Source: a virus
Lineage: Duplodnaviria > Heunggongvirae > Uroviricota > Caudoviricetes
IMG/VR virus record: IMGVR_UViG_2602041644_000008
Coordinates: 1-37,809 of that record
DNA length: 37,809 nucleotides
Reading direction: 5' to 3' (one strand)
Shown: positions 1,766 through 37,809 of the stretch, one piece after another
Layout of the letters: the number at the start of each line of letters is the position of its first letter
Position numbering within the stretch: the stretch's first letter is position 1
Translations under genes and position numbers: made by a program
The notes under the pieces: model-generated
Databases searched by the model: none
Seen by the model: the letters and a program-made list of their open reading frames with translations, nothing else
Told to the model about the DNA's origin: nothing

Positions 1766-2391
1766 ACCGCCAGCACCTTACTGGCAGTGATGTATCGCGC
1801 GCGCCGGTCATCAATGCCGTTCCGGCCACCATTGATAAGCAGAGTTACACGTGCAATATCTCCGGTATACTTCATGCAGCCTTTGCTGGAGAAGAACCAG
1901 GCCGCGCTACGAGCCGCGTATTCGTCCTGTGCCAGCAGTTCAGGATTCTCCAGCAGGTCAACTTTCAGACCGTTTCCGCAGTCACGATAGTTATTCAAAC
2001 CGGTAATCTGGATAAGCCCGCGCCCACGGTAATTCCAGCCATCGCCGGGAGCATTGTTACCCATGCGTTTGCTGTATACCAGATTTGCGATCGCGCGCTG
2101 GCGCTCAAGTGGCAATGGTGGTTCACCAGCGCGGCGCCCCAGTGCATTAGCCTGTCCCTGGGTGAGGCGTCCAGTCCGGACAAAGCTTGCCAGTCCGGTA
2201 ACGCTGTAGTTGAAATTCTCCTGCAACCTAGTGAACCCCCCAGACTCATGCCCAACTTGAGCAATAAACATTGCCTGATCTTCTGCTTTGCTGATACCAA
2301 ACTCTTTCATCGCAGAAGTTATATGCGAGAACCAGCGAGCGGCCAGCGCCTCGCTAATACCAGCAGCTCGCTGGAATTGTTTAATCTCCAT
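1762..2391 (-). CDS. Endolysin, glycoside hydrolase family 19 (chitinase-like lysozyme)
   Basis: GH19 motifs [12 protein letters not shown] and [15 protein letters not shown]. Confidence 0.8.
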
Positions 2392-2689
2392 GTTTAGACC
2401 TCGTTATTTTGAAAATCTGAACGACGTTACCGCGCGTTTTAATAACCGCAGCAAGCATGACAGCGTTGATAATGACCTCAGATAAATCCACAGCCATTGG
2501 CGTGCGTAACCAGATTGCATAGACGACACGAACTGGAATACTGGCTGCAGCAACAATCAGGAAATAAGCAAGCCATCCCCCCCATCTTCGGTGTTGTGAA
2601 CCGTTACGCCGGAAAGTGACAACGCGAATTGCTATGCCAGTACAAATAACTGCATTGGTGATAAGCAAAAAAAACTCATGCGTTACCAT
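2381..2689 (-). CDS. Small membrane protein of the lysis cassette (holin/antiholin candidate)
   Basis: About 3 predicted TM helices, basic C-terminus. Overlaps both neighbouring genes. Confidence 0.4.
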
Positions 2690-3092
2690 CGTCTTTTCTC
2701 CCCGGAATTAACTCGCGTGGATTATCGGAACGGTGATAGAGCCAGATGCCAATTCGTACTGCGACGATTGCTGACACAAATGCGCCAGCAGAGAAAACAA
2801 TCCCTTTCTCGAAAGAGTCCTGCGTGATGGTAGGTATCAGGCTGGCTATGCCGATAAGAATTGATGCTGCTGGTTTGTAGAAAAGAAGTCCGCAGAGAAA
2901 ACTAAGCATCGACAAGAGTACGCGACGACGAATTGGGTACTCTACCGCAGAGGTAACAAAAATTACCGCGCCAGCCAAAGCTCCCAAAGCAACCTCAGGA
3001 GGCACTCCTGCTATCACCGCCGCCAGAGAACTCATGCTAAGCCACTGATTTAATGTTTCACTGGTTAGTTGAGCTGACATATTTTCCACCAT
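2676..3092 (-). CDS. Holin candidate (multi-TM membrane protein)
   Basis: 3-4 hydrophobic helices and a charged C-terminal tail. First gene of the lysis cluster. Confidence 0.45.
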   Translation of the reverse strand: MVENMSAQLTSETLNQWLSMSSLAAVIAGVPPEVALGALAGAVIFVTSAVEYPIRRRVLLSMLSFLCGLLFYKPAASILIGIASLIPTITQDSFEKGIVFSAGAFVSAIVAVRIGIWLYHRSDNPRELIPGRKDDGNA

Positions 3093-3301
3093 TTATATGC
3101 ATAACGACCCCCTAAATAGTAAAACATCATGCATGATAAACCATTTGTGGTTTTTTGTTACCCTGACATCGTCAATCCCCTGCCTTTGATGTCGATAATA
3201 AGGCTCGCCTTTTACATAACTCTGAACAGATTGCAGTACAGAAATGATTTAAAATATAGAGGCTTAGTTGAATTCCGCGCCATCAAATGGCGCGGTAGCA
3301 G

Positions 3302-32829: not shown

Positions 32830-33174
32830 TCAGAACTCTTCGATGTTCCAGCCACCACCTGCTTTCTTTGGCTTAACCGTTACCCCGATGATTCGGAACG
32901 GATACTGATCTGCGGCGACTTTGGTTTTCACCCTGGCGTCGTCGGTCCAGAAACCTTTCACTTCGTGCAGTTCCATCTCGCCGGTGGCGAGCATCACAGC
33001 AAAATCGGGCGTATAGAACGTGTTGTCAGCTAACCGCAACTTGATACCCTCGAATCGATACCAGGCGATTTCCCCTGCACGTTTACGCTGCTCAAGGTGC
33101 TGGCAATACGCAGATTCTGTTTTGTTCATCTGGCCTGTTTTGAGTCGACCAAGAGCCTGCATCTGTTTTCTCAT
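32830..33174 (-). CDS. DUF1064-like protein
   Basis: About 114 aa. NKTESAY..LE.RK.AGEI..YRFE...L.......YTPDF.V...GE.E.HEVKGFWTDDARVK.KVAA fits the DUF1064 pattern found in lambdoid phages. Start is overlapped by an operator. Confidence 0.5.
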   Translation of the reverse strand: MRKQMQALGRLKTGQMNKTESAYCQHLEQRKRAGEIAWYRFEGIKLRLADNTFYTPDFAVMLATGEMELHEVKGFWTDDARVKTKVAADQYPFRIIGVTVKPKKAGGGWNIEEF

Positions 33175-33176
33175 GA

Positions 33177-33193
33177 TTTACCCATGAGGTAAT
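33177..33193. promoter_or_regulatory. Operator dyad TTTACCCATGAGGTAAT
   Basis: Abuts the start codon of the 32830..33174 gene. Confidence 0.5.
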
Positions 33194-33238
33194 TAAAAAC
33201 CACATAAGACACGAAATCAATAGATCTTAGAACATTTT

Positions 33239-33255
33239 ATTACCTAGCAGGTAAT
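33239..33255. promoter_or_regulatory. Operator dyad ATTACCTAGCAGGTAAT
   Basis: Perfect dyad between the post-P terminator and the DUF1064 gene. Confidence 0.55.
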
Positions 33256-33264
33256 TATCAAGAC

Positions 33265-33287
33265 GTAAAAAAATGCGCTATCGCGCT
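33265..33287 (-). terminator. Weak terminator after the P-like gene (GCGC-GATA-GCGC followed by ATTTTTTT)
   Basis: Short GC stem with a 7-T tract on the minus strand. Confidence 0.35.
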
Positions 33288-33291
33288 GGTA

Positions 33292-34092
33292 TTACTTGAT
33301 AAATCCTGCCGCCTTTCCCCGCCTGTATTCCTCCATCAGCCACTGCGCCGGTGTTATTCCCCCCAGGGTAGCGGCGTTAGGCATACACCCGAAACTTCGC
33401 CCTGGTGGATGGTAAACGCCTCTCCCTGTGTCCGGAGGCGTACTCATGGGTTCTGGCTTTGCCTGTATGCTGATCACCGGATCGGGTATCTGCTGTCCGG
33501 AAGCCACCTTTTTCGCCCAATCATCAAGCAGCCTGCGCGCGTGTTTCTCAACCTCAATCTCGCTAAGCTGGCGCTGATACATTGCACGGCGGGTATCACA
33601 TACGACCCAGTACATAACCGGATGCCGCCACGGGAATCTTTCGGGACCACCAGGATATAAACTTTTTTCCTTGCTGTACCGGTGAAACTCCGCCATCACA
33701 TCGTCAATGGTGACGCCAAGAACCATCTTGCTGTCTTTACACCACTTGATAAATTGCCCTGGCGACGGCCAGAACGGAGATTCACTGGCGCGGGCGTGGC
33801 GCATACCAGCAGAAACCTGTTCACGGGTTCGGATCCCCCCTTCGGCAAACGCAGCAATCCACTGCTGTTTTGCAGCAACTTCCTGCTCTGGCGTCTTCAG
33901 GTTGGTTACCACTGCCGCCGGAAACAGTTGTTTCAACTGTTTGAAAAGGGCATCAACAAGCCTCTCTGCTGACATGTTCACTACGTTGTCATTGTTGGTG
34001 TACTGATGCTCATAACCTGACATGCGAGAAAGGGCTTCTCCGTCACGGTTTTGTATCGCGGTAAAAACGTTGTTCACAAGAAATCCTCCCAT
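33292..34092 (-). CDS. Replication protein P-like (lambda P family, DnaB helicase loader)
   Basis: EQEVAAKQQWIAAFAEGGIRTREQVSAGMRHARASESPFWPSPGQFIKWCK aligns closely with lambda P QNEVNEIRRQWVLAFRENGITTMEQVNAGMRVARRQNRPFLPSPGQFVAWCR. Confidence 0.75.
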   Translation of the reverse strand: MGGFLVNNVFTAIQNRDGEALSRMSGYEHQYTNNDNVVNMSAERLVDALFKQLKQLFPAAVVTNLKTPEQEVAAKQQWIAAFAEGGIRTREQVSAGMRHARASESPFWPSPGQFIKWCKDSKMVLGVTIDDVMAEFHRYSKEKSLYPGGPERFPWRHPVMYWVVCDTRRAMYQRQLSEIEVEKHARRLLDDWAKKVASGQQIPDPVISIQAKPEPMSTPPDTGRGVYHPPGRSFGCMPNAATLGGITPAQWLMEEYRRGKAAGFIK

Positions 34093-34889
34093 GCTTCAGG
34101 GCTGTTCCAGTGCGGAACGTTGTTATCAGGTAATGTTGATTGCTTCTGTCTGCTAATCTGCAGCCGCCTTGCCAGCTTCTGCTCCCACTGTGCCTGATGG
34201 TATGCCCTACCCTCAGCCATCCAGTAAATTCTGAACTCTGCAAGTTCCTGTGCCGTTGGCAGACTGTCCAGGTAGATCCCCTGCAATGAGCTTTTCCGAA
34301 GAAAGTCATCTGATGGCTGCCATTGTTCATGCATGACAAATTTGCCTAATTGCCCTGGCCCACCAGGAGGAACAAAGTTATTCATCACGGCGTTGTTTGC
34401 GCCGGGGTCATGATGCACAGAATCCCCGTTTTTTGTCCTGCTCTCCCTCTCTTGGTTAAATGACTGGTTATATGACTGGTTCTGGATCCCGTTTTTGGGA
34501 TCATTCAACATCCCGTTTTTGGGATCATTCAACATCCCGTTTTTGGGTATATTCCCGTTTTCGGGAACATTACCGTTTTCGGGTTCATTACCCCCTTCCC
34601 GGTTGCCTTTAATGTTCCCGTTTTTGGTTATATTAAGAGAGAAAACCCGCACTCTTTTCGTCGCTCCCTTTCTCTCTCCGGTATCTGAAATAAGCCCCAT
34701 TTTCATGAGCGATATAAGCCCGGCCTGCACGGTTTTTTTATTCAGGCAAGTGTCTTTAACGAGGCGTTCTATGCTGGGGTAGCAGAGGTTATATTCATCG
34801 GCTCTGTCAGCCATCGAGAGCAGTATGAGCTTTAATGACGAGCTACCTGGATCTGTCTCCCAGGCCCAATCTGTTGCATGTCTGCTCAT
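34074..34889 (-). CDS. Replication initiator (lambda O-like: N-terminal HTH DNA-binding domain, Asn/Gly-rich repeat linker, C-terminal domain)
   Basis: RBS GGAG-N8-ATG. Peptide repeats (ENGNVPENGNIPKNGMLNDPKNGMLNDPKNGIQ) encoded by iteron DNA inside the gene, as in lambda O. Position is immediately upstream of the P-like gene. Confidence 0.6.
   Translation of the reverse strand: MSRHATDWAWETDPGSSSLKLILLSMADRADEYNLCYPSIERLVKDTCLNKKTVQAGLISLMKMGLISDTGERKGATKRVRVFSLNITKNGNIKGNREGGNEPENGNVPENGNIPKNGMLNDPKNGMLNDPKNGIQNQSYNQSFNQERESRTKNGDSVHHDPGANNAVMNNFVPPGGPGQLGKFVMHEQWQPSDDFLRKSSLQGIYLDSLPTAQELAEFRIYWMAEGRAYHQAQWEQKLARRLQISRQKQSTLPDNNVPHWNSPEAWEDFL
34476..34630. repeat. Origin of replication: about 6 iterons (ATCCCGTTTTTGGGAT-type dyads) plus adjacent AT-rich stretch, inside the O-like gene
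   Basis: GATCCCGTTTTTGGGATC x2 (34476, 34500), ATCCCGTTTTTGGGTAT, TTCCCGTTTTCGGGAAC, TTACCGTTTTCGGGTTC, TTCCCGTTTTTGGTTAT, then ATATTAAGAGAGAAAA. Also direct repeat ATGACTGGTT x2 (34451-34472). Confidence 0.65.
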
Positions 34890-34904
34890 GATTAATCTCC
34901 GCTA

Positions 34905-35174
34905 TCAGCTTGAATGTTGTGGGGAGGAATTAATCATGATCTGCTTAATCTCTGCCCTGATACGACGGTTTGATTCCATGGTGCACTCAACACAGTGTCC
35001 GTTGTAAACCCAGCGTTCACTGTCATGTCCGTGCTTACATGGTTTTCCGGTGTAGTAGCGTTTAAGTCCGCGCTTTGCGGCATCAATACGTGTAATGATT
35101 TCCATGGTAAGCCCTGTTATTAGTATTGGGATTACGGTCATTTTGTGCTGACACAAAAAAAAGATCAACCACAT
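34905..35174 (-). CDS. Small Cys/His-rich (zinc-ribbon-like) protein, CII-position gene; start uncertain (M1, M12 or M24)
   Basis: KPCKHGHDSERWVYNGHCVEC motif. First gene after the cro terminator and an operator. Confidence 0.4.
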   Translation of the reverse strand: MWLIFFLCQHKMTVIPILITGLTMEIITRIDAAKRGLKRYYTGKPCKHGHDSERWVYNGHCVECTMESNRRIRAEIKQIMINSSPQHSS

Positions 35175-35184
35175 TTGGTTATTT

Positions 35185-35201
35185 ATTACCTTTGAGGTAC
35201 G
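35185..35201. promoter_or_regulatory. Operator dyad ATTACCTTTGAGGTACG
   Basis: Between the cro terminator and the zinc-ribbon gene. Confidence 0.5.
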
Positions 35202-35210
35202 AATAGATAT

Positions 35211-35233
35211 GAAAAGACCGCCGGGTGGCGGTC
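35211..35233 (-). terminator. Terminator after the cro-like gene (tR1-like)
   Basis: Minus strand GACCGCC-ACCC-GGCGGTC followed by TTTTC. Confidence 0.5.
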
Positions 35234-35255
35234 TACAGAGGGTTGTAGCTGGATA

Positions 35256-35486
35256 TCATGAGTAGAAGAAGTATGCCAGTTCTGCTTTTGAGTGCAGCCA
35301 TTGTCTTGATTTACAGGCTTTAAAAAGCCCATTCATCAATACCTTACCTGGCATTTTGCGCTTACCTGTTAAGTGAGTCTGGATATAGTGACTCGTCGTT
35401 CCGGCTTCCTGTGCGAAGGCTTCACGCTCATCCGGAGTAAGTGCAAGCCAGTGCTTTTTGAAATCGAAATGTCCGTTATCGCTCAT
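35256..35486 (-). CDS. Cro/CII-like HTH regulator (first gene of the early operon divergent from the repressor)
   Basis: HTH segment FAQEAGTTSHYIQTHLTG resembles the CII-type HTH. Position equals cro. Confidence 0.55.
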   Translation of the reverse strand: MSDNGHFDFKKHWLALTPDEREAFAQEAGTTSHYIQTHLTGKRKMPGKVLMNGLFKACKSRQWLHSKAELAYFFYS

Positions 35487-35521
35487 AGCTATTGCCTGAT
35501 ATTTATTTCAGATAATAAATA

Positions 35522-35538
35522 TTCACCTATAAGGTAAC
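35522..35538. promoter_or_regulatory. Operator O1 TTCACCTATAAGGTAAC (cro-proximal)
   Basis: One of three tandem dyads in the 154-bp cI-cro intergenic region. Confidence 0.6.
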
Positions 35539-35552
35539 AAAAATCAAGGATA

Positions 35553-35569
35553 GTTACCCATGAGGTGCA
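35553..35569. promoter_or_regulatory. Operator O2 GTTACCCATGAGGTGCA
   Basis: Centre 31 bp from O1. Confidence 0.55.
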
Positions 35570-35586
35570 TTTACCTGTTGGGTAAT
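35570..35586. promoter_or_regulatory. Operator O3 TTTACCTGTTGGGTAAT (repressor-proximal)
   Basis: Abuts O2. Lambda OR-like tripartite arrangement. Confidence 0.55.
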
Positions 35587-35640
35587 ATTGCTTTAAATTG
35601 AATCATCTTCTGATTCAGATATGAGGCGATTTTCCAGAAA

Positions 35641-36225
35641 ATGAAAAGTATCCAGGACGTCCGCAGGCAAAATCTCAACGACTTGATCGACCGTGAATTC
35701 AATGGTGTTCAGACGCGGATGGCTGAAAAACTTGGAACTCAGGCAAATCTGGTAAACCGCTGGGCTCTTGGCAAGAAGGTTATCGGCGACCAGGTTGCGC
35801 GAAAAATTGAAGCTGCCGCCAATAAACCCCGTAACTGGCTTGATATCGATCGCTCGCTTTCTCAGGAAGGTTTTCAGCCTGTCGGACCAAGCGACATTGG
35901 TCAACTGGCGGCTCACAACCTGGAACGCTGGATGAGCGAAAGCCGCGACCTTTCAACGCAGGGAAAACTTCACCGCGCATCCGGCGTCGCCCAGGTAACA
36001 ATCAGCCGCCTGTTAAACAATGAGGTCAGCGTTTCCATTTCCACCCTGGAGAATGTTGCATCCGCATTTGGGCGTCACGGATATGAATTACTGATTCACC
36101 CGCACGACCCCGCGACTATCAACTATGACCGCTCGCGCTACGCATTGTTACCTGAAACAGAGAAGGCAAAGATCGAAAGTTACATTGAATTTGTCATCAA
36201 CCAGAACGAAAAAAACAAACAATAA
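35641..36225 (+). CDS. Prophage repressor, two XRE-type HTH domains, no S24/LexA-like peptidase domain
   Basis: HTH1 TRMAEKLGTQANLVNRWALGKK. HTH2 LHRASGVAQVTISRLLNNEVSVSISTLENVASAFG. No Ser/Lys autocleavage module. Divergent from cro with three operators. Confidence 0.65.
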   Translation: MKSIQDVRRQNLNDLIDREFNGVQTRMAEKLGTQANLVNRWALGKKVIGDQVARKIEAAANKPRNWLDIDRSLSQEGFQPVGPSDIGQLAAHNLERWMSESRDLSTQGKLHRASGVAQVTISRLLNNEVSVSISTLENVASAFGRHGYELLIHPHDPATINYDRSRYALLPETEKAKIESYIEFVINQNEKNKQ

Positions 36226-36247
36226 AATCATATTTTTCAGTAAGTAA

Positions 36248-36270
36248 GCCGCCTTCTGGCGGCTTTTTTA
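36248..36270 (+). terminator. Rho-independent terminator after the repressor gene
   Basis: GCCGCC-TTCT-GGCGGC followed by TTTTTT. Confidence 0.65.
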
Positions 36271-36281
36271 TTGCCTATTTG

Positions 36282-36298
36282 ATTACCTAACGGGTAAT
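36282..36298. promoter_or_regulatory. Operator dyad ATTACCTAACGGGTAAT
   Basis: Perfect dyad upstream of the promoter for the recombination operon. Confidence 0.55.
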
Positions 36299-36316
36299 TT
36301 TTTTAACTCATATCTA

Positions 36317-36360
36317 TTGACATCAAACCAGATACGCATAATTATTACCTCAACGGTAAC
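36317..36360 (+). promoter_or_regulatory. Early promoter (TTGACA-17-AATTAT) with operator ATTACCTCAACGGTAAC (36344..36360) over the -10/+1 region
   Basis: Consensus -35 hexamer. Dyad overlaps the -10/start region. Drives the plus-strand genes from 36379 onward (PL-like). Confidence 0.5.
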
Positions 36361-36378
36361 AGACCGAGGTAACAAGTT

Positions 36379-36531
36379 ATGCAGTGGAAAATCATCAACG
36401 GTTGGTACTGCGTTACTGCATGCGGATTCATGAGCTGGAAGTTCCGCACCTTACAGGAAGGCATTAAGTGGGCTTTCGTCAGCAAAGAAGCTCGCGATGT
36501 GGCCAACGATAACGAGATATGGGAGGGCTGA
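36379..36531 (+). CDS. Small ORF (50 aa, Trp/Cys-rich), first gene of the recombination operon
   Basis: SD GAGG 9 nt upstream of ATG. Untracked short ORF. Confidence 0.25.
   Translation: MQWKIINGWYCVTACGFMSWKFRTLQEGIKWAFVSKEARDVANDNEIWEG

Positions 36532-37560: not shown

Positions 37561-37581
<21 letters not shown>
37033..37581 (+). pseudogene. RecE/YqaJ-like PD-(D/E)XK exonuclease, 3' truncated by IS insertion
   Basis: Motifs GTALHCLLLEPGEF, IRPDKW and IVDVKK (catalytic D-x-K) present. Expected C-terminal region replaced by CQRHDV-stop, read from IS-derived sequence starting near 37561. Confidence 0.5.

Positions 37582-37809
<228 letters not shown>

Follow-up and report, generated by a model that had tools for sequence, protein, structure and literature searches.

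A probable iteron-containing replication origin inside the initiator gene of a phiV10-like phage

Where do phiV10-like temperate phages begin to replicate their DNA, and does a cluster of short repeats inside the gene for a replication initiator mark the place? The question is raised by the viral stretch IMGVR_UViG_2602041644_000008, analyzed here over its whole length of 37,809 nucleotides (the window). A sequence-only reading of this DNA had proposed a lambda-type origin, with six dyad iterons embedded in an O-like initiator gene, an AT-rich stretch following them, and a lambda-P homologue downstream. The present analysis indicates that positions 34420–34640 very probably serve a temperate phage of the phiV10 type as its origin of vegetative replication, situated within the phage's own initiator gene. 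Of the earlier proposal, the iterons, their position in the linker-coding part of the gene, the P gene, and the ori-lambda-like placement stand, but the initiator is O-like in function and not a member of the O family, and the AT-rich stretch is weak.

The repeat core, CCGTTTTYGG, is present in exactly six copies, all on the + strand between 34489 and 34627 (starting at 34489, 34513, 34537, 34555, 34573, and 34618), and there are no other exact copies in the 37,809 bases; the expectation from dinucleotide shuffling is 0.17 (mean), and none of 100 shuffled sequences reaches six copies. The cores belong to a 24-nt repeat family with six members, beginning at 34486, 34510, 34534, 34552, 34570, and 34615, and the array extends from 34486 to 34638. 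Tandem Repeats Finder reports a period-24 array at 34486–34547 (score 124) and a period-18 array at 34537–34592 (score 77); together with an adjacent 12-nt repeat, these are the only strong tandem repeats that it finds in the 37.8-kb window. The start-to-start spacings of the six iterons are 24, 24, 18, 18, and 45 bp, in agreement with the number, place, and 24- and 18-bp spacing initially described, with the addition of one 45-bp gap. The internal dyads are likewise real, but the symmetry is graded and is perfect in only three of the six copies: two have perfect 5-bp arms of the type ATCCC-N6-GGGAT (ATCCC-GTTTTT-GGGAT) and one is a perfect TTCCCG-TTTT-CGGGAA dyad, the remaining three being weaker. 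A seventh iteron-like copy with one mismatch lies at 34426–34435, and a possible decayed iteron would split the 45-bp gap into 18 and 27 bp. The elements of the array, in gene order, are as follows.

34615–34630, iteron 1: TTCCCGTTTTTGGTTA on the + strand, TAACCAAAAACGGGAA on the coding strand
34588–34605, possible decayed iteron: matches 9 of 18 positions of the period-18 unit; seen by eye, weak, with no detection by any tool
34570–34585, iteron 2: TTACCGTTTTCGGGTT
34552–34567, iteron 3: TTCCCGTTTTCGGGAA, with perfect 6-bp arms around TTTT
34534–34549, iteron 4: ATCCCGTTTTTGGGTA
34510–34525, iteron 5: ATCCCGTTTTTGGGAT, with perfect 5-bp arms; includes a GATC
34486–34501, iteron 6, the last: ATCCCGTTTTTGGGAT, with GATC sites on both flanks
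34453–34485, CAGAACC box and 12-nt tandem repeats: coding strand CAGAACCAGTCATATAACCAGTCATTTAACCA, period 12, 2.4 copies; candidate unwinding element or binding site for single-stranded DNA (ssDNA)
34423–34438, outlying iteron-like copy beyond the 12-mers: coding strand GGACAAAAAACGGGGA, containing the one-mismatch core

The gene that carries the array and the two structured regions that it encodes are the following.

34074–34889, minus strand: replication initiator gene, 271 amino acids (aa), with a winged-helix N-domain (HTH_36), a disordered linker containing the iterons, and a C-terminal DnaT-like ssDNA-binding domain
34626–34889, minus strand: coding region of the N-terminal winged helix (aa 1–88; AlphaFold), the presumed reader of the iterons
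34134–34340, minus strand: coding region of the DnaT-C-terminal-like domain (aa 184–252; Pfam PF17948, 1.1e-15)

Pfam places HTH_36 at aa 18–67 (1.6e-10) and the DnaT C-terminal domain at aa 184–252, and aa 1–269 match phrog_1032, "replication initiation protein," over the full length (3.2e-108). These profile matches indicate that the protein is a member of the HTH_36 + DnaT-C group of phage initiators (phrog_1032; DopC-like architecture). In the AlphaFold model, the N-domain consists of four helices and a beta-hairpin wing, with a predicted local distance difference test score (pLDDT) of 85–94 to aa 70 and 71–79 for aa 71–90, and the linker has a pLDDT of about 30 for aa 90–180; it should be noted that the underlying alignment is shallow, the full-length search having returned only close E. 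coli relatives, and that the C-domain model is poor. A search of protein databases with the N-domain only gave mostly truncated fragments, and a Foldseek search with the same domain gave zero matches at E<=0.001 and only generic dimeric winged helix-turn-helix proteins, including the staphylococcal plasmid Rep 5kbj (E = 0.03) and 4pql. The iterons encode aa 88–134 (TKNGNIKGNREGGNEPENGNVPENGNIPKNGMLNDPKNGMLNDPKNG), between the end of one Pfam domain at aa 67 and the beginning of the next at aa 184 and largely within the part of low pLDDT, which agrees with the proposed location in the linker-coding part of the gene.

The protein is neither an orthologue of DnaT nor a member of the lambda O family. 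Structures of the DnaT C terminus in the PDB (4ou6, 4ou7, 6aep, 2ru8, 9zbt, and 9zbu) are matched at 1e-18 to 1e-20, but the alignments pair aa 180–265 of the query with DnaT residues 85–170 only and the N-half is HTH_36; orthology with DnaT was therefore rejected. Because the matches are limited to these residues, the database name "primosomal protein DnaT" appears to be misleading for this initiator. A BLASTP comparison with lambda O gave nothing meaningful, PF04492 (Phage_rep_O) does not match the initiator even at E<=10, whereas lambda O itself scores 7e-37, and phrog_277 and phrog_2357, which represent the P-interacting C-domain of the lambda O type, are missing from the list of matches to the initiator. 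Membership of the O family was rejected on these grounds together with the DnaT-like C-domain, and the description "O-like" applies to function and, at most, to a very remote common descent. The sole link consists of two profiles matched by both N-terminal parts at overlapping profile positions, phrog_678 (lambda O, 1.7e-35; window, 1.4e-12) and phrog_345 (5.2e-17 and 1.6e-08, respectively), and a remote homology of the N-domains of the initiator and lambda O is possible. HHpred has been found to relate the N termini of O and HTH_36 proteins (Brezellec et al., PMC5509034). No Rep_3-type plasmid initiator domain was matched by Pfam in the initiator.

Are the repeats a DNA element or a peptide repeat? 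In the window, the 18- and 24-nt units keep one frame and give tidy PKNG/PENG repeats in a region of predicted disorder, as would be expected if the repeats were a protein feature, a flexible N/G/P-rich linker under selection as a peptide in which the DNA dyads were incidental. Relatives of the initiator allow this explanation to be evaluated. They were collected by tblastn with the N-domain against phage genomes and then by searching a single genome of each species with an alignment of N-domains, which added 80 loci from many genera. The tblastn relatives include the Edwardsiella phages Edno5 and GF-2, as well as Vibrio phage Her with its kin (57% identity of the N-domain), Acinetobacter phages Acb75 and AB1 (50%) and AP22 (47%), E. 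coli prophage PPompW (49%), Burkholderia phage Bcep176 (44%), and the "O" protein of the Shiga toxin-converting (Stx) phage Min27 (29%). An array occupies the corresponding position in the gene of every one of them, and the relatives with 43–57% identical N-domains have iterons of the CCC-N6-GGG type: ATCCCAAAATTGGGAT in three copies at 24 bp in Edno5, plus weaker copies at 17–18 bp; CCCGAAAACGGTAC in five copies at 24 bp in Her; AACCCAAATTTGGGT in Acb75; ACCCAAAAACGGGA in PPompW; and, from the printed sequence, CCCAAA-type copies including CCCAAATTTGGG in Bcep176. In the 72 intact homologues, each taken from a different species, a locus-specific 10-mer was counted within gene nt 230–620: 67 of the genes contain three copies or more and 60 contain four or more, with a median of five; on both strands of the 3.2-kb loci, 341 copies of the 10-mers fall within the arrays and 15 elsewhere.

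These arrays do not follow the reading frame. Copies are placed in more than one frame in 56 of the 67 arrays, and in all three in 34; the spacings seen most often are 17 nt (66 cases), 22 nt (43 cases), and 24 nt (41 cases), and relatives with 17- or 22-bp spacing have no peptide repeat. The same DNA motif is read P-K-N-G in the window, T-Q-K-R (one copy each) in Edno5 and PPompW, and VPNLG elsewhere, and the center of the dyad varies across the relatives in ways that change the encoded residue (N, I, or F), with the CCC and GGG arms left constant. The rare codons CCC and GGG are fixed inside the iterons; the proline codons of the window iterons are CCC in 5 of 5 cases, against 2 of 11 elsewhere in the initiator gene and 6 of 41 in neighboring genes. 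The distribution of copies over frames therefore indicates that the repeat is constrained as DNA, and the peptide-repeat explanation, which we regard as hardly credible, was rejected on the evidence of reading frame and codons. The NG/PKNG repeats noted earlier at aa 88–134 are real and arise only because the phage of the window uses 18- and 24-nt units; they are a by-product of the spacing.

The number of repeat units is variable. The arrangement of the window is shared by 44 of 80 contigs with 99–100% identical N-domains, and in the rest the number of iterons is 4–8, changed by whole 18- or 24-nt units; gene lengths range from 792 to 888 nt among phages that are 98–100% identical, and the E. 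coli database proteins of the family are mostly of 279 aa, with forms of 287, 291, and 311 aa in addition to the 271 aa of the window. Several database proteins of the family end within or just past the iteron zone, and some appear to be read in another frame (e.g. CTQKRVFECTQKRV), which suggests repeat slippage, assembly errors, or gene calls cut at contig ends. Such variation is what would be expected if the array were a contingency repeat prone to slippage, or a hot spot of recombination, that varies linker length and has no sequence-specific reader, but this explanation accounts only for the number of units. It does not account for a C-tract/A-core/G-tract dyad that is conserved across elements of Gamma-, Beta-, Delta-, and Alphaproteobacteria and leaves the co-variation of the iterons with the N-domain unexplained, and we consider it very unlikely.

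That co-variation is seen when the iterons are compared across the family. Those of enteric relatives are CCCAAAAACGGG, those of Acinetobacter prophages are mostly GTCCCAACAATGGGAC, and those of Pseudoalteromonas and Marinomonas are ACCCCCAAA..GGGGG; Min27, whose HTH_36 N-domain is the most divergent of those named above, has an unrelated dyad, GGGGCAGGAGCTGCCC, in three 21-nt copies (gene at locus positions 2001–2669) that are followed by the same AGAACC...GAACC box that is described below. The identity of the N-domains correlates with the similarity of the iteron profiles (Mantel r = 0.42, p = 0.001), a correlation that is confounded by shared descent. The comparisons indicate that the iteron sequence follows the N-domain and that, in many genera, the repeats are tied to the N-domain family in both position and evolution. 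The downstream partner, on the other hand, varies: Edno5 has a P homologue at this position, Acb75 and AP22 encode a DnaB-like helicase there, and other relatives have other genes.

The initiator of Edno5 is particularly informative. In this protein, encoded at locus positions 2001–2843, aa 1–128 match aa 1–140 of the window initiator (52% identity, 2e-37), a segment that takes in the iterons and the beginning of the box region, and aa 137–280 match aa 156–299 of lambda O (61%, 7e-66), a segment that begins just past the AT-rich tract of ori-lambda; a P gene follows. Edno5 thus joins a module of the window type to the C-domain of lambda O and can therefore be viewed as a natural domain-swap exchange in which the C-domain of O and P have been kept. 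The alignments indicate that the N-domain and the iterons, with at least the beginning of the box region, are interchangeable with the corresponding piece of lambda O and that this module of the window corresponds in function to ori-lambda together with the origin-binding domain of O. Among the phiV10-like phages, TL-2011b, ZX5, and HEMP4 have the same flanks and a different initiator; that of TL-2011b (locus positions 2341–3165) has an unrelated N-domain and two 19-bp GTAACGC...GCGTTAC palindromes 190 nt apart but keeps the DnaT-like C-domain and P.

Several further properties of the array were recorded. In Scandinavium and Enterobacter prophages, the conserved iteron sequence is longer and forms a near-perfect dyad of ~24 bp, AACAGTCCCAAAAACGGGACTGTT (gene nt ~290–480), and the full recognition site of the HTH_36 initiator family may have 9-bp arms, of which the window would keep the inner 4–5. 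The GATC sites at 34485, 34499, and 34523 (within 34464–34526) form the sole place in the window with three such sites within 60 bp, and each overlaps an iteron arm (GATCCC or GGGATC); GATCCC arms are also present in the enteric and Edwardsiella relatives, and in phages Her, Acb75, and AP22 a gene for a Dam-type methylase lies no more than ~1.5 kb upstream of that for the initiator. Control of the origin by methylation or SeqA is possible. No DnaA boxes or IHF consensus sites were found near the array under the patterns used. On the + strand, neighboring iterons form two hairpins at 34496–34539 (GGGAT-N10-ATCCC, followed by a T-run) that scored as weak terminators of antisense transcription through the initiator gene; since the 17/22-nt spacing of relatives does not allow such hairpins, they were judged to be a by-product of the iterons and probably incidental.

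If the iterons are sites for the initiator, where would the DNA open? The array is flanked on the C-terminal side of the gene by a second conserved element. A box of the form C[AG][GT]AA[CT]C (CAGAAYC), located with a regular expression, directly follows the last iteron in 76 of 81 homologous loci, and two or three 11–12-nt repeats of the GAAYC-N6–7 type come after the box in all 23 relatives for which the sequence was printed. In 74 loci aligned on the box, the AT content of positions +20 to +39 beyond it is 72% (A alone, 49%), compared with a mean of 56% over the loci, with no comparable AT enrichment on the other side of the array. In the window, the 12-nt unit is TGGTTAAATGAC (34453–34481; peptide NQSY/NQSF), and it varies in copy number; the initiator of phiV10 has 275 aa as opposed to 271 in the window because of one additional unit. 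The stretch on this side is also strongly strand-skewed (AT skew of −0.65 on the + strand at 34430–34469), the A-rich strand being the coding strand. The CAGAAYC box and the 12-mers, which lie on the same side of the array as the unwinding region of lambda, are the best candidate for an unwinding element.

A number of observations weigh against the assignment of an origin to this locus and, in part, against its lambda-type character. The sequence-only reading had an AT-rich stretch after the iterons; in the window this feature is weak, since the C-terminal side that is equivalent to that of lambda (34440–34485) has only 55–60% AT against a background of 52%. The sole clearly AT-rich piece, a 20-bp segment at 34621–34640 (80% AT, 99th percentile of the window), overlaps iteron 1 at the N-terminal side of the array, whereas the tract of lambda is on the other side, and the least stable 30-mer (34610–34639, −35.3 kcal/mol, top 5% of the window) is on that side as well. 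The CAGAAYC box is in one reading frame in 41 of 53 cases, and a constraint at the level of the peptide is possible. In addition to the confounding of the Mantel correlation, the comparative set is dominated by Acinetobacter prophages. No rep_origin, iteron, or repeat feature is found among the annotated features of the phiV10 and TL-2011b stretches that were fetched, and the copy in the window may come from a damaged prophage, given the IS21 insertion at the window end. Finally, the biochemistry of lambda is not simply transferable because the initiator has no detectable similarity to lambda O.

The modest AT content bears on another explanation, in which the iterons bind the initiator but mainly serve regulation (titration, handcuffing, autoregulation, or exclusion of related phages) and replication starts elsewhere in the genome. 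The repeats of iteron plasmids serve initiation and copy control alike, a copy number of 4–8 among near-identical phages is what a tunable titration array might show, and the window is without a strong AT-rich unwinding element beside the array. However, the window contains no other repeat array; the conserved box and 12-mers and the family-wide A-rich stretch after the last iteron resemble an unwinding element; and in the Edno5 chimera the iterons, with at least the beginning of the box region, occupy exactly the place that ori-lambda has in O. Regulation and initiation are also not mutually exclusive. A mainly regulatory array is therefore considered unlikely, and an origin at 34420–34640 is the preferred interpretation.

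The gene that follows the initiator agrees with such an origin.

33292–34092, minus strand: helicase loader gene of the lambda-P type (PF06992, 1.5e-56, profile positions 2–162 of 162)

The product has 31% identity to lambda P over 202 aa (9e-36) and matches the solved structures of lambda P in its complex with DnaB (PDB 8v9t, 2.4e-31; 6bbm, 3.4e-15). The gene overlaps the stop codon of the initiator gene by 19 nt when read from its ATG, or by 4 nt (GTGA) from the start annotated in phiV10; the O and P genes of lambda overlap by 4 nt. The lambda-P homologue downstream is thus as clear as had been thought, and its homology suggests that replication would be of the DnaB-dependent theta type.

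A sequence of events can be proposed for the initiation of replication. Dimers formed by the N-terminal winged helices would bind the six dyad iterons (CCC-AAAAAC-GGG on the coding strand), and the like-oriented central A-tracts would bend the DNA into a nucleoprotein complex resembling an O-some, A-tract bending being a feature of the O-some of lambda (PMC7466680). The complex would destabilize the adjacent strand-skewed CAGAACC/12-mer stretch (34453–34485), where the DnaT-like C-domains, tethered to the iterons, would hold the exposed single strand and/or dock P; P would then deliver the DnaB of the host, and bidirectional theta replication would start. Transcription that crosses the initiator gene and the origin, as in lambda, would come from the following candidate.

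35512–35540, minus strand: pR-like promoter candidate, TTGTTA-17-TATTAT, upstream of the cro-like gene (9 of 12 matches, a consensus match only)

We infer, and only infer, the binding, the bending, the site of unwinding, the docking of P, and the dependence on DnaB. A more specific proposal, which is offered tentatively and which we think rather less probable than its alternatives taken together, is that the protein is a two-module, DnaA-like initiator: the iteron-bound winged helices would place the DnaT-type C-domains beside the CAGAAYC/12-mers, and these would form a filament on the A-rich single strand, opening the origin or stabilizing it in the open state and marking the spot at which P hands over DnaB. 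If this is correct, origin firing in a phage family represented in Gamma-, Beta-, Delta-, and Alphaproteobacteria reuses the chemistry of replication restart, and the GAAYC 11–12-mers would be a sequence-specific ssDNA element analogous to the repeats of plasmid and oriC unwinding elements.

The surroundings of the locus identify the phage. Identity to Escherichia phage phiV10 and related phages (epsilon15-like temperate podophages, Uetakevirus) is 97.6–98.5% over the stretch 33200–35600, and this stretch is matched at >=95% identity in 541 of 5426 complete E. coli genomes (~10%), which indicates that the window is from a phiV10-like E. coli phage or prophage. The DNA of the initiator gene is 98% identical in phiV10, where the product is annotated "replication initiation protein" or "putative primosomal protein" and that of the next gene "putative replication protein P." The end of the window (37563–37809) contains a C-terminal fragment of an IS21-family IstB on the minus strand (37621–37800; PF01695, 4.5e-14), and the open reading frame (ORF) that precedes it, for a RecE-like PD-(D/E)XK exonuclease, stops early at 37581, its counterpart in phiV10 being much longer; it appears that an insertion sequence has interrupted this prophage copy. 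A small minus-strand ORF (34905–35174) that lies between the cro-like and initiator genes encodes 89 aa, or 66 aa in the annotation of phiV10; it matches phrog_1081 (unknown function), has zero Pfam family matches, and contains a Cys/His-rich stretch, CKHGH...CVEC. A terminator-like hairpin follows the cro-like gene on the minus strand (35215–35234) and is annotated in phiV10 too, and a scan of 33000–36500 against Rfam gave no match to a structured-RNA family. The cumulative GC skew has its minimum near 34–36 kb, which coincides with a switch in gene orientation and was not used as evidence.

Phages of the phiV10 type are in use as reporter phages for E. coli O157. The present results provide this group with a concrete and testable origin, and they would correct the widespread annotation of a gene that is usually named "primosomal protein" or "DnaT" to that of a phage origin-binding initiator. 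More generally, they point to a whole family of HTH_36 initiators with an origin inside the gene, characterized by iterons that are independent of the reading frame and by a conserved box past the last iteron, and they offer a natural system for the role of the ssDNA-filament domain of the DnaT type at an origin. No earlier description of this origin or iteron motif was found in the searchable literature, nor any paper that has the iteron strings in connection with a phage or relates phiV10 to iterons, a search that did not extend to the genome papers on phiV10 (Perry 2009) and epsilon15 or to Weigel & Seitz 2006, any of which may contain one.

Comparisons with known systems place the locus closest to ori-lambda. 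In both, the origin lies inside the initiator gene, between the regions for an N-terminal DNA-binding domain and a C-terminal domain, and at the same relative place, ori-lambda corresponding to aa 117–145 of the 299 of O and the iterons of the window to aa 88–134 of 271. As in lambda and the Stx phages 933W and P27, there are 4–6 direct repeats with internal dyads and a central A-tract, about two helical turns apart, with the run of A on the coding strand; the lambda iteron, ATCCCTCAAAACGAGGGAT, visibly resembles that of the window, ATCCCAAAAACGGGAT, although the spacer between the arms is 6 bp as opposed to 9 in lambda. The number of iterons is 4 in lambda and 6 in Stx phages (PMC7466680), which parallels the variation of 4–8 seen here, and in each case a gene for a P-family helicase loader follows and overlaps that of the initiator. 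The locus differs from ori-lambda in that its initiator shows no homology to O in BLASTP or Pfam searches and has a DnaT-like C-domain, in having a CAGAAYC box and 12-nt repeats of modest AT content in place of the 40-bp AT-rich tract of lambda, and in the extra iteron-like copy beyond this flanking element. Judged from its sequence, it has the structure of a lambda-type embedded origin in each respect that was considered, apart from a strong AT-rich tract.

Other systems resemble individual parts of the locus. The initiators of the iteron plasmids (R6K pi, F RepE, RK2 TrfA, and pPS10 RepA) are also winged-helix proteins that act at direct repeats beside an unwinding element built of repeats, which in the plasmids are of ~13 nt. 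The plasmid iterons, however, are located outside the rep gene and are usually asymmetric 17–22-mers bound by monomers; moreover, the plasmids obtain the helicase via DnaA and DnaC and not, as would be the case here, via P, and the phage protein has no Rep_3-type domain. The C-terminal 85 residues of the initiator match the ssDNA-binding, filament-forming C-terminal domain of E. coli DnaT (primosomal protein I), but the initiator is without the DnaT N-domain and the acidic linker that binds PriB, and its gene is part of a phage early operon with P. The DopC/DopE pair of Cellvibrionales and Oceanospirillales has the same combination of HTH_36 with a DnaT C-terminal motif, encoded directly upstream of a P-like gene of PF06992. 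In the study of this domesticated O-like/P-like pair, no iterons were found in dopC, and it was concluded not to be an origin (Brezellec et al. 2017, PMC5509034), whereas an array is present here and in 67 of the 72 relatives in mobile elements. The iteron-bearing phage genes would then be the ancestral state that was lost on domestication, which would explain why iteron-free DopC genes no longer act as origins. The "replication initiation O-like" proteins of Edno5 and GF-2 share with the window the N-domain family (52% identity), the type of iteron, the CAGAAT box, and a P gene downstream and differ in having a C-domain of the lambda O type and not a DnaT-like one; Edno5 is thus a hybrid that links the two systems.

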